Shown: positions 9,559 to 14,382 of the stretch, in pieces
How the letters are laid out: each line of letters begins with the position of its first letter
Numbering within the stretch: the first letter of the stretch is position 1
Sequence record: OR780565.1
DNA from: Escherichia phage DCP2
Strand: one strand, 5' to 3'
Length of the DNA: 64,000 nucleotides
Program-made: the position numbers and the translations under genes
Notes under the pieces: generated by a model
Database searches by the model: none
Told to the model about the DNA's origin: nothing
The model's input: only the letters and a program-made list of their open reading frames with translations

Positions 9559-9607
9559 GCGTCGTCCTCCTTTAAATTAAATATTTATCGCAAATTTTAC
9601 AAAATTT

Positions 9608-9640
9608 GTTTACTTTCTCAGCTTGCTGTGGTATTATAAA
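9608..9640 (+). promoter_or_regulatory. T4-type early promoter
   Basis: GTTTAC 9608-9613, -10 TATTATAAA about 17 bp downstream. Confidence 0.6.
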
Positions 9641-9662
9641 ATAAACTGCTGAGGATAATATA

Positions 9663-11002
<1,340 letters not shown>

Positions 11003-11062
11003 TTGCTTATATATTCAAATGATATAATTATTTAACTTATTAATGAATTGAAAGGAAAAATA

Positions 11063-11581
11063 ATGGCATACTTTAATGAATGTTCACAACTGATTGAAGG
11101 CGCTGATAAAGCTCAAAACGAATACTGGGATATTCTCGGTGATGAAAAAGACCCGCTGCAAGTTATGCTTGATATGCAGAAATCTCTGCAGGTTCGTTTA
11201 GCTAAAGATAAACCTGAATATAACCGTCATCCTGATGATTTGGCTACTGCGGGTGAAGTTGTTGATTGGCTGCGTAATCAGAAAGATTATATTGATGATG
11301 AATTCCGCGAACTATTGACTTCTCTTGGTGGTATGAGCAATGGTGAAAAAGATGCATCTGCTGTATGGAAGCCTTGGAAAGCTCAACATGGTGAACGACG
11401 TGAAACTCTGATTACTGATTTGTCTCCACAAGACCAGTTGGAAATTAAATTCGAAATGATTGATATTCTTCATTTCGTTCTGAACATGTTCCAAGGTCTC
11501 GGTCTTACGGCTGAAGAAATCTTTAAACTTTATTATCTGAAAAATGCTGAAAACTTCGCTCGTCAAGACCGAGGTTATTAA
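11063..11581 (+). CDS. 56: gp56 dCTPase/dUTPase (dCTP pyrophosphatase)
   Basis: 172 aa from ATG with AAAGGA RBS; MazG-like; matches T4 gp56. Confidence 0.9.
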   Translation: MAYFNECSQLIEGADKAQNEYWDILGDEKDPLQVMLDMQKSLQVRLAKDKPEYNRHPDDLATAGEVVDWLRNQKDYIDDEFRELLTSLGGMSNGEKDASAVWKPWKAQHGERRETLITDLSPQDQLEIKFEMIDILHFVLNMFQGLGLTAEEIFKLYYLKNAENFARQDRGY

Positions 11582-11781
11582 TGGCTCGTTTAAATAAACG
11601 TCAACTTAAGAAAGCCCACAAGAAACGTATTGACCAGCTATTTAAAAATTATGACAAGGAGCTCACATACGAGCTCCTATCTAATCAGCTCCACAAAGCT
11701 TACACAATTAAAACTGGACATATACAATTAGGTAAGGTGCATGAAGAAGCCTTAAAATTAATTATAGAGCATTCAAAATGA
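11581..11781 (+). CDS. hypothetical basic protein (66 aa)
   Basis: ATG overlaps gp56 stop; Lys/Arg-rich. Confidence 0.5.
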   Translation: MARLNKRQLKKAHKKRIDQLFKNYDKELTYELLSNQLHKAYTIKTGHIQLGKVHEEALKLIIEHSK

Positions 11782-11965
11782 AATTTGATTTTTATGCATG
11801 GCAAAAAGCCGGGAGACCGGCTAGTTGAGCATTTGGTTCTGATGGATATAATATTAGAGCTCATTGGAAGTTTAATGCTCCAGCCGATTATTCTCCGGTA
11901 ATTATTAACGGTGATGTTGTTATATTAACTAAAATTGGGTATTTTAACGTTCCGCAAGAATTTAT

Positions 11966-11973
11966 TATAAATA
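11966..11973 (+). promoter_or_regulatory. T4 late promoter (TATAAATA) for soc
   Basis: Exact TATAAATA octamer about 30 bp upstream of soc ATG; soc is a late gene. Confidence 0.6.
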
Positions 11974-12002
11974 GTCATGTAATTTAAATAAAGGAGAATT
12001 AC

Positions 12003-12248
12003 ATGGCTAGTACTCGCGGTTATGTTAATATTAAAACATTTGAGCAAAAATTAGATGGAAATAAGAAAATTGAAGGAAAGGAAATTTCTGTAGCTTTCCC
12101 TCTTTATTCTGACGTTCACAAAATTTCTGGCGCTCATTATCAGATATTCCCTTCAGAAAAAGCAGCATATTCTACAGTATATGAAGAAAATCAACGTACT
12201 GAATGGATTACTGCAAACGAAGATTTGTGGAAAGTAACTGGTGAATAA
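12003..12248 (+). CDS. soc: Soc small outer capsid protein
   Basis: 81 aa; near-identical to T4 Soc (MASTRGYVNIKTFEQKLDGNKKIEGKEISVAFPLYSDVHKISGAHYQ). Confidence 0.9.
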   Translation: MASTRGYVNIKTFEQKLDGNKKIEGKEISVAFPLYSDVHKISGAHYQIFPSEKAAYSTVYEENQRTEWITANEDLWKVTGE

Positions 12249-12253
12249 ATTCA

Positions 12254-12278
12254 AGGACTCCTTCGGGAGTCCTTTTTT
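12254..12278 (+). terminator. intrinsic terminator after soc
   Basis: GGACTCC-TTCG-GGAGTCC hairpin (UUCG tetraloop) followed by T6. Confidence 0.75.
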
Positions 12279-12288
12279 CATTTTACCG

Positions 12289-12318
12289 GTTTACTTTCCA
12301 AAATGAGTATGGTATAAT
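12289..12318 (+). promoter_or_regulatory. T4-type early promoter
   Basis: GTTTAC 12289-12294, TATAAT 12313-12318. Confidence 0.6.
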
Positions 12319-12344
12319 AAAATTATCTTATAGAGGAGAGCACT

Positions 12345-12557
12345 ATGTTAAATCGCTGGATTAAACCAAATGAAGACCTCCAGAAGGTTCTTGATAAAGC
12401 TATCTCTGATAAATGGGGTATGAAAAGCTGGGATTGTGATATCGTCACGCATTCATTCATGATGCATGCAGATGGTTCAGTCGAGTTCAATGCTGAAATG
12501 CGATACACTGATTGGGGTGGATTTCAAAGAGTCGAATTTCAAAGAGGCTTTTTGTAA
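12345..12557 (+). CDS. hypothetical protein (70 aa)
   Basis: AGAGGAGAG RBS, downstream of promoter. Confidence 0.55.
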   Translation: MLNRWIKPNEDLQKVLDKAISDKWGMKSWDCDIVTHSFMMHADGSVEFNAEMRYTDWGGFQRVEFQRGFL

Positions 12558-12895
12558 TGTTTATCTTTAATTGGTTTAAAAGTTTCTTTACGGATTTTTT
12601 CTCTACAACTCCCGGAGAAGGTGTAGTTCCTATTTCAAATGACTACCTTCCTTTAACTGTAGTTGAATATGTTTATATGGGAGATGGAACAGTAGAAGCA
12701 GTTACTATGACTTATGAAGAAGCCCAGGAATATTATAAAAATCCTTGGCGTTGGTCAACACCTACATCATCTAATACGCAGAATACACAGTCTAGTTCTG
12801 ATTCATATGATACTAATGTTCCTGTTCATGTGTGGACGGGCGATTCATGTGGAAGTTCTTGTGATTCTAGTTGTTCATCTACATCTTGTGATTGA
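12557..12895 (+). CDS. hypothetical protein with Ser/Cys-rich C-terminal tail (112 aa)
   Basis: ATG overlaps upstream stop (TAATG); C-terminus [18 protein letters not shown]. Confidence 0.5.
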
Positions 12896-12903
12896 GGAAA
12901 ATT

Positions 12904-13389
12904 ATGGAAGCGATTTTGTTTGAAATGTATATTAGCAGTAATAGTATGTCGTTTGCTAAAGACGTTCCAATTACCGTAGCAGTAATGATTGATAAGGGTT
13001 ATTGTGACCCAATGTATCTCGTAGAAAATTTCGTTTCAATGCCAGTTCCAGAAGATGCTGAAATAAAACTTAAAAAGATTGGTATCATTGAAACTGTACC
13101 AAATATTCCATTTAGAGCAATTGAAGCATTTACTAAATCCGAATACATTAATGTTAGCGCAGAACAATATAATGATAAACCTTTATCTTTCTATTCGTAC
13201 GATTCATTATATAGTTGGAAAATAGATAAAGGAAATAAATTTATAATTGCGAGTGAAGACGCTTTATCATATTTTATTTCTTCTGTATGGAATAGTTTAC
13301 ATCCAAATTTGCTAAAAATTCATGAATTTGACGATGCTTCTACTGTCGTTTTAGGTAAAACAAATGAAAGTTCTGAAGAAAATGTTTGA
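12904..13389 (+). CDS. hypothetical protein (161 aa)
   Basis: ATG after GAGGAAA RBS. Confidence 0.55.
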
Positions 13390-13567
13390 ATGGTTCAATA
13401 GACCAAACTCAATGTACATTGATGATGGTTGGGTTGAACAAGCAAATAAAGAAATGCAGAACGAATCGGAAGAATGGATGAAATCAATGATTAGTGCTGA
13501 GAAAGAAAAGAAATTAGAACGCTCAGCGCTTAAATTGATGAGAGATATCTATGGGGATAAATCATGA
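13364..13567 (+). CDS. hypothetical protein (67 aa)
   Basis: Overlapping ORF, weak RBS. Confidence 0.4.
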
Positions 13568-13728
13568 ACAGAGATATGACGCTAGAAGAGGCCAAGGCTA
13601 AAGCAAATGAAGCACTGGATTTGCTTCTTAAAATTGGCAGTAAAATGATGGAAGAAAATGAGAAATATATCCAGGAAAACAAAATTCCTGACGGCCCATT
13701 AGTAGGCAAAAGGAAATCACATGATTGA
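13564..13728 (+). CDS. hypothetical protein (54 aa)
   Basis: ATGA overlap with upstream ORF; below track cut-off. Confidence 0.4.
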
Positions 13729-14191
13729 AGTAGCAAAACATTATTCAATAGAATTTATGTCTAAAGAAGGTAAATCAGTAAATGCACTTGATAAAAAATG
13801 CTCATTAATTATTCCTTTAGCAGAAAATCCGGATCTTTTAATTAAAGATATAAAAGAAAGAAAATATCCAGAAAATGTTATTCTAATTATAAAGCATACT
13901 GAAGATATTTTACAGAATACTGATTCACCGTTTTCTTCTTCTGAAGCTTTAACTATTAAAGGCTATAAAAGAGCTCATGAATATGGTCTTTTTGACCTGT
14001 TTGAAGATGATAAAGTTAAATTAGCGAGTCAACCTTTTAAAAGTAAAACATTCATTATTGAAGATATTAAAGATATAAATGCATTTGTTAAGATGGTCTG
14101 GGCTCATTTTGATGTTGGACTACGCTGGAGAATGTCTGAAGAAGAAAGAAAGATTATTGAAGCTAATCGTCAATTTGGTTTTTATCGCTAG
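13721..14191 (+). CDS. hypothetical protein (156 aa)
   Basis: ORF in the mrh-region position between soc and modB. Confidence 0.5.
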
Positions 14192-14199
14192 GAATTAGT

Positions 14200-14382
14200 A
14201 TGGATTTATTTGAGATGTTAGAAGATAATCATTCTACGAATATCCAGAATGATTCTAGTGATTATAAGAAAGAATACCGTATAGTATTACAGAATTATGG
14301 AATTGAAGCCCCAGATGCTCTTCTAGAAGAACTAGCTTCATACCATCTTGACCCTCCGCCCTGGGCTCCCTGGGCAAAATAA
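14200..14382 (+). CDS. hypothetical protein (60 aa)
   Basis: short ORF, acidic. Confidence 0.45.
   Translation: MDLFEMLEDNHSTNIQNDSSDYKKEYRIVLQNYGIEAPDALLEELASYHLDPPPWAPWAK

Follow-up and report, generated by a model that had tools for sequence, protein, structure and literature searches.

The stretch of DNA analyzed here, 64,000 nucleotides of Escherichia phage DCP2 (OR780565.1) and hereafter called the window, carries the genes dam-56-soc.2-soc.1-soc-mrh.2 in this order, with the frame that we identify as soc.1 interrupted by one in-frame TGA (Table 1). The TAA stop of gene 56 overlaps the start of soc.2 (TAATG), and the TGA stop of soc.2 overlaps the ATG of soc.1 (ATGA), a type of overlap usual in translational coupling. 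A Shine-Dalgarno sequence, AAGGAG at 11991-11996, lies ahead of the soc ATG at 12003, and TATAAATA, the T4 late-promoter consensus, occurs only five times within the 64-kb window, one of the copies being located inside the last codons of soc.1.

Table 1. Features between gene 56 and the end of soc (coordinates of the window).
Feature	Position	Strand	Basis
Gene 56 (dCTP pyrophosphatase), intact	11063..11581	+	Annotated in identical relatives; tblastn
soc.2, 66 aa, intact	11581..11781	+	phrog_5782, E = 3.9e-37
soc.1, predicted translated remnant: 16 codons, MKFDFYAWQKAGRPAS, and premature TGA	11778..11828	+	Codon reading
+1-frame ORF, 38 aa from TTG or 35 aa from ATG 11794	11785..11901	+	Read as an annotation artefact
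Causal base, T against C in intact relatives (CGA Arg17 to TGA)	11826	+	Alignments
soc.1, orphaned 3′ part, 52 codons and TAA	11829..11987	+	Codons 18-69 conserved in homologs
TATAAATA, match to the T4 late-promoter consensus	11966..11973	+	30 nt upstream of the soc ATG
soc (small outer capsid protein), intact	12003..12248	+	PF16855; tblastn
Terminator hairpin after soc	12253-12274		

The interrupted frame is soc.1

Direct reading of the codons gives a single frame of 69 codons on the plus strand (11778-11987), running from ATG 11778-11780 to TAA 11985-11987 with one internal stop, the TGA at 11826-11828, which is codon 17; its translation is MKFDFYAWQKAGRPAS*AFGSDGYNIRAHWKFNAPADYSPVIINGDVVILTKIGYFNVPQEFIINSHVI*. 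The original prediction had reported this frame from the letters alone, and its coordinates and content proved exact on re-reading, as did its remark that the 52 codons downstream have no start, since no in-frame ATG, GTG or TTG lies 3′ of the TGA. Having no in-frame start, positions 11829..11987 are probably untranslated. Three origins had been offered for the frame: a decaying gene, a readthrough or recoding site, or chance. At the base composition of the window (35% G+C, a stop probability of 0.075 per codon) a 52-codon open stretch arises by chance with P ~0.017, and at most one stop in 68 codons with P ~0.03. Chance is thus already unlikely by composition, and homology settles against it, the whole frame being matched by protein families DUF7422 and phrog_5773.

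With codon 17 read as Arg, the E-values of these matches are 2.8e-46 for Pfam DUF7422 (PF24197) and 1.9e-41 for phrog_5773. The intact allele of phage HY03 scores 155.9 bits against DUF7422 (cut-off 27) and covers residues 1-69 of 69, and the window's soc.1 differs from HY03-type intact alleles by the stop and at most one residue. UniProt Q94MW2 is the 'ORF soc.1' of phage T2, and the names soc.2 and soc.1 are annotated in the GenBank relatives ime09 and Shfl2. The frame stands right after 56 (and soc.2) and right before soc, it has the position and length of T2 ORF soc.1, and 68 of its 69 codons are identical to those of the intact alleles of LF73P3 and metagenome contig L013. On this homology and synteny we assign it to soc.1, the second gene of the T2-type soc.2-soc.1 cassette between 56 and soc. 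What sets it apart from intact soc.1 is codon 17, TGA instead of CGA, which breaks the frame and leaves only 16 residues to be expected. As a side observation, Q94MW2 (P0011) itself, the original T2 entry, is a 40-residue frameshifted form, and later T2 genomes encode 69 residues.

The slot of segF in phage T4

Gene 56 of the window is ~80% identical to T4 gene 56 up to position 11541, where homology to T4 ends, to resume at 11966 (match 11966-12376, 96%). This gap indicates that a single slot is filled either by the soc.2-soc.1 cassette or by segF, T4 having the order dam-56-segF-soc-mrh.2. T4 homology resumes at the first base of TATAAATA, so that the cassette boundary coincides with the presumed late promoter of soc. 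The arrangement agrees with the account of Belle et al. (2002), as relayed in PMC5931544, that T2 carries soc.1 and soc.2 where T4 carries segF.

The original prediction had placed the frame where T4 carries segF. The position stands, but the ORF itself is unrelated to segF (gene 69, the T4 GIY-YIG homing endonuclease): neither Soc.1 nor Soc.2 gave a significant BLASTP alignment to SegF, the window has no endonuclease here, and membership of segF or the GIY-YIG family was rejected. That the ORF is soc.1, a resident gene of T2-type phages, had gone unrecognized. Membership of the Soc family (PF16855) was likewise rejected for Soc.1, which gave no alignment at E <= 100. The Soc.2 and Soc.1 proteins of relatives carry RefSeq and PHROG labels such as 'virion structural protein', 'head protein' and 'small outer capsid protein (soc.1)'; we found no structural evidence for labels of the 'head protein' type, which look like propagation from the gene names.

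Conservation, predicted fold and family of Soc.1

soc.1 is conserved across Tequatro-, Mosig- and Karamvirus. Nei-Gojobori omega is 0.16 when intact Tequatrovirus alleles are compared with each other and 0.21-0.34 when Tequatrovirus is compared with Mosigvirus, and codons 18-69 taken alone give 0.17-0.32, values by which soc.1 is under purifying selection elsewhere, including the part that lies beyond the stop in the window. The original prediction had suggested dN/dS of the two halves as a check and had named a downstream frame lacking conservation as the outcome that would speak against it; for the downstream part these ratios show the opposite, conservation at the protein level. The 16 residues MKFDFYAWQKAGRPAS are the most conserved segment of the family and are retained across three genera, into Karamvirus, over synonymous differences.

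AlphaFold predicted a single compact alpha/beta domain spanning residues 1-66 with pLDDT 92 from a nine-sequence alignment, obtained by adding two divergent members to a seven-sequence alignment whose pLDDT of 63 was unusable. If Soc.1 is one compact domain as modeled, a 16-residue product would be unable to fold and the allele would be null.

The opposite view, that the functional product is the 16-residue N-terminal peptide itself or a restart in the +1 frame (from ATG 11842 or as the 11785-11901 ORF), draws on the exceptional conservation of MKFDFYAWQKAGRPAS with synonymous variation beneath, and on the +1 ORF being open in both Tequatrovirus and Mosigvirus. In the AlphaFold model, however, the N-terminal residues are part of the one domain, and two natural alleles break inside the MKFDFYAWQKAGRPAS motif, by the stop at codon 8 in Solly and the frameshift at about codon 5 in OBRI. 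The +1 ORF in turn has no family match and its residues vary freely where soc.1 varies synonymously, which leaves this proposal highly improbable.

The family is tiny, with 11 clusters among 5.8 billion proteins and seven members recovered by a profile search of 1.84 billion representatives. Neither structure nor sequence comparison found relatives of known function, and no paper was found on the function of Soc.1 or on DUF7422. Several observations concern its wider architecture. In Karamvirus the Soc.1 domain sits within longer proteins: in the Enterobacter phage RZH (L018, 336-704) an upstream ORF is fused in frame to soc.1, giving a 121-aa product equal to P0007 and unannotated in the record, and in PG7 (L019) and Pet-CM3-4 (L020), at 501-866, gene 56 is followed directly by a 121-aa protein that is extended at its C-terminus by a helical part. 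A further 53-aa protein (P0014) consists of a Soc.1 fragment joined to the gp56 C-terminus, its contig being either rearranged or chimeric.

The stop is derived, probably with a single local origin

Codon 17 is CGA (Arg) in HY03, ime09, ESh26, T2, T6, ZCEC15, OES_C-2 and LF73P3, and in the metagenome contigs L013 and L014 as well; distant family members have Lys, Pro, Gln or Gln-Arg at or near this position (codons AAA, CCN). The site is therefore a sense codon in relatives, which the original prediction had proposed to look for by alignment, and the stop is derived, as expected of a nonsense pseudogene. The closest case is LF73P3, which within soc.1 differs from the window solely at base 11826 (C, not T), and which shares the haplotype of the window down to the deletion of 1 nt from the soc.1-soc spacer, yet has CGA. 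This deletion (11988-12002, AAATAAAGG instead of AAATAAAAGG) is common to LF73P3, HP3 and the identical TGA carriers, and brings soc into frame with soc.1.

The TGA allele is present in 22 of about 171 GenBank records holding this part of soc.1, where soc.1-bearing records number 171-242 and alleles were read individually in a subset. These comprise 18 records with the TGA-specific 35-mer, the CGA version of which occurs in at least 83, and the HP3 group of four records, which has an extra AG-to-TT change just 5′ of the stop (the TGA was read directly in HP3 and HP3.1 and assumed in HP3.2). The 22 best matches to window positions 9600-14200 are exactly the 22 TGA carriers, and the next best is ZCEC15 with CGA, which argues for a single origin in one local lineage. 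Carriers have been isolated in Korea, China and the USA, with E. coli, E. fergusonii and Yersinia as hosts. YUEEL01 and TOPO13 join the TGA to an ime09-like 3′ segment, a pattern consistent with a recombination crossover just downstream of the stop. Outside GenBank, a pattern scan of IMG/VR, which holds few T-even genomes, gave one contig with the allele, equal to ZN18, and a metagenome scan for soc.1 gave three loci, two intact and one frameshifted.

The T at 11826 is not a sequencing error, because an identical 35-mer and 57-mer spanning it are found in the 18 GenBank records, from several laboratories. An artefact of sequencing or assembly is one of two explanations which we count as effectively refuted, the other being selenocysteine insertion; nothing beyond the presence of a UGA codon speaks for them. 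The same base recurs in 18 independent records, which removes the artefact, and selenocysteine is contradicted by the lack of a SECIS in Rfam and by homologs having Arg, Lys or Pro here, never Cys.

Among the carriers, 15 records are identical to the window over a 451-bp soc.2-soc.1 stretch and their soc.1 3′ part is without decay. The surrounding sequence is just as uniform: a51 is 100% identical to the window around soc.1 and ZN18, CHD2BS1 and ECO07P4 are nearly so, over 1.4-1.6 kb. Since in these four records the flanks are as well preserved as the gene, the undecayed 3′ part reflects youth and not constraint, and on its own it cannot discriminate decay from constraint. Additional changes are seen in HP3 (the AG-to-TT above) and in the ENA assembly ERZ16268256, which lies outside GenBank and combines the R17* TGA with a +1 insertion and an F-to-S change, and most other carriers are identical over 1.4-1.6 kb.

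Two observations on the genomes themselves may be added. The window has ~60 substitutions against all TGA-clade relatives, shared in the comparison with each, across 9600-11200 (a 186-codon ORF at 9663-10223, dam and the start of 56) and is identical to them from 11200 to ~12800, indicating that the genome is a mosaic; its best match over 25 kb, GEP001, reaches only 97.2%. HP3 (L027, NC_041919.1) is listed under Rosemountvirus in RefSeq taxonomy and has a typical Tequatrovirus sequence, 96-97% identical to the window, so that the record probably misassigns its taxonomy.

A probable young nonsense pseudogene

We conclude that the frame is very probably the accessory gene soc.1 in an allele that lost its function recently, an ordinary young nonsense pseudogene. 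To this point the ancestral CGA, the restriction of the carriers to one local clade, the conservation that soc.1 shows elsewhere, the further changes in one carrier and the independent lesions described below. The option of a decaying gene, as originally put forward, is thus supported by the CGA relatives together with the conserved downstream frame.

According to this account, soc.1 of T2-type Tequatroviruses would be transcribed together with 56 and soc.2, its translation apparently being coupled to theirs as well, and a single C-to-T transition in the lineage of the window turned codon 17 from CGA (Arg) into TGA. Ribosomes would then release a 16-residue peptide at codon 17 and the remaining 52 codons would stay untranslated apart from the basal UGA leakiness of the host, which could still yield a trace of full-length Soc.1 in E. 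coli. The null allele would persist in circulation because soc.1 is dispensable, as suggested by its absence from T4, where segF replaces the cassette, and by the viability of isolates. No polar damage would be expected, as soc appears to have its own late promoter and ribosome-binding site. The allele resembles the nonsense (opal) mutants and pseudogenes known for T-even genes that are not essential, in being a single G:C-to-A:T transition at CGA in a viable phage with no suppressor, and differs from laboratory opal mutants in circulating naturally, in about 22 sequenced isolates.

Readthrough and a new promoter

A UGA in frame with an open and conserved sequence downstream recalls the Q-beta A1 readthrough and the fdhF-type SECIS, and it may be asked whether the UGA is read as Trp by a near-cognate tRNA, giving functional full-length Soc.1 in the manner of A1. 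E. coli UGA is known to be leaky, and the downstream soc.1 frame is fully open and identical to the intact allele. Against this, the stop is a derived state seen only in a single young clade, with Arg, Lys, Pro or Gln at or near codon 17 in other members, and the base after the TGA is G, a context not favouring readthrough. A modest hairpin follows the stop (z = -2.1), but CGA relatives have the identical sequence, so the hairpin is no adaptation to the stop; no stimulatory context or structure is specific to the stop-bearing genomes. An Rfam search returned chance-level matches only, with no recoding element and no SECIS-like family even at E up to 10. There are no tRNA genes within the window, and none of the 11 tRNAs of the TGA carrier phage 107 has a TCA anticodon. 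In contrast to the Q-beta and fdhF cases, the stop here is unconserved, no dedicated downstream element was found, and one carrier (ERZ16268256) has since lost the downstream frame by frameshift. We therefore regard programmed readthrough as very unlikely, and the recoding option of the original prediction falls with it.

The nonsense T also turns TCGAGC into TTGAGC, a 4-of-6 match to the -35 hexamer, which a spacer of 16 nt separates from a perfect TATAAT downstream (11847-11852). The C-to-T change could accordingly be imagined as selected for a new sigma-70-type promoter inside soc.1 driving early transcription toward soc, the TTGAGC-16-TATAAT at 11825-11852 having 10/12 matches and its first hexamer only 3/6 with the C. 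A scan, however, found 9 such sites against a chance expectation of 5.7 +/- 2.1 in this AT-rich stretch, other phages break soc.1 at other positions, and soc has its own presumed late promoter, while the terminator at 12253 would confine the transcript to soc. Selection for a promoter is hardly credible on this evidence, and the motif is probably a coincidence in AT-rich DNA.

Repeated lesions of soc.1

The TGA allele is one of several independent breaks in soc.1. In Solly the gene has W8* (TGG-to-TGA), and in Maryam W30* (TGG-to-TGA) together with R60* (CGA-to-TGA); the frame of the OBRI allele shifts at about codon 5. A -1 frameshift is found in Logan assembly ERR4191872, a +1 frameshift in ENA ERZ13617300, and an extra T within a T run in a Mosigvirus-like metagenome contig, although such frameshifts from metagenome and Logan assemblies may be assembly errors. 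The frameshifted T2 entry Q94MW2 also counts among the independent lesions. At every lesioned soc.1 locus examined, in a sample partly selected for lacking a soc.1 annotation, 56, soc.2, soc and mrh.2 are intact by tblastn. Each of the four nonsense substitutions is a G:C-to-A:T transition in a CGA or TGG codon, as mutation alone would produce.

The recurrence of lesions raises the possibility that soc.1 knockouts are positively selected, Soc.1 being sensed by a host defence or costly on some hosts, so that the TGA allele spread because it is null and not despite it. There are at least three independent substitution knockouts (R17*, W8* and W30* with R60*) plus several frameshifts in a gene of only 69 codons that is otherwise under purifying selection, with its neighbours intact, and the TGA isolates are spread over three countries and three host taxa. 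On the other hand, the nonsense changes all follow the classic mutational routes at CGA and TGG, the data are explained equally well by neutral loss of a dispensable gene, the sampling is biased toward broken alleles, and ~86% of the records carry alleles not shown broken. No literature was found that links Soc.1 to any defence system. We thus consider adaptive loss unlikely, and slightly less likely still its specific form, in which soc.1 is conditionally harmful and its repeated inactivation is selected, for example as escape from an immune sensor recognising Soc.1. In that event the TGA allele would represent an escape mutation that arose in nature, and Soc.1 would become a candidate for a trigger of defence or a determinant of host range.

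Consequences for annotation and biology

The young pseudogene matters mostly for annotation, and it reveals no recoding mechanism. The +1 ORF at 11785-11901 is called only in genomes with a broken soc.1, as a 'putative transmembrane protein' in phage 107 and a 'hypothetical protein' in a51 and CHD2BS1 (CHD/G3 phages also call it). It has no PHROG or Pfam match and is not conserved as a protein, its start being lost in SHSML-52-1 and PG7; judged from sequence, it is a gene-caller artefact filling the gap left by the broken soc.1. In ~22 GenBank genomes, as a result, the locus is either blank or occupied by this spurious 'transmembrane protein' in place of a marked soc.1 pseudogene, and the labels 'head protein' and 'virion structural protein' on Soc.1 and Soc.2 are unsupported by the evidence here. 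As for the biology of these phages, soc.1 would be a gene that is dispensable in nature though conserved across three genera, and its repeated knockouts make it a cheap candidate for a small T-even protein that may affect host range or defence sensing.
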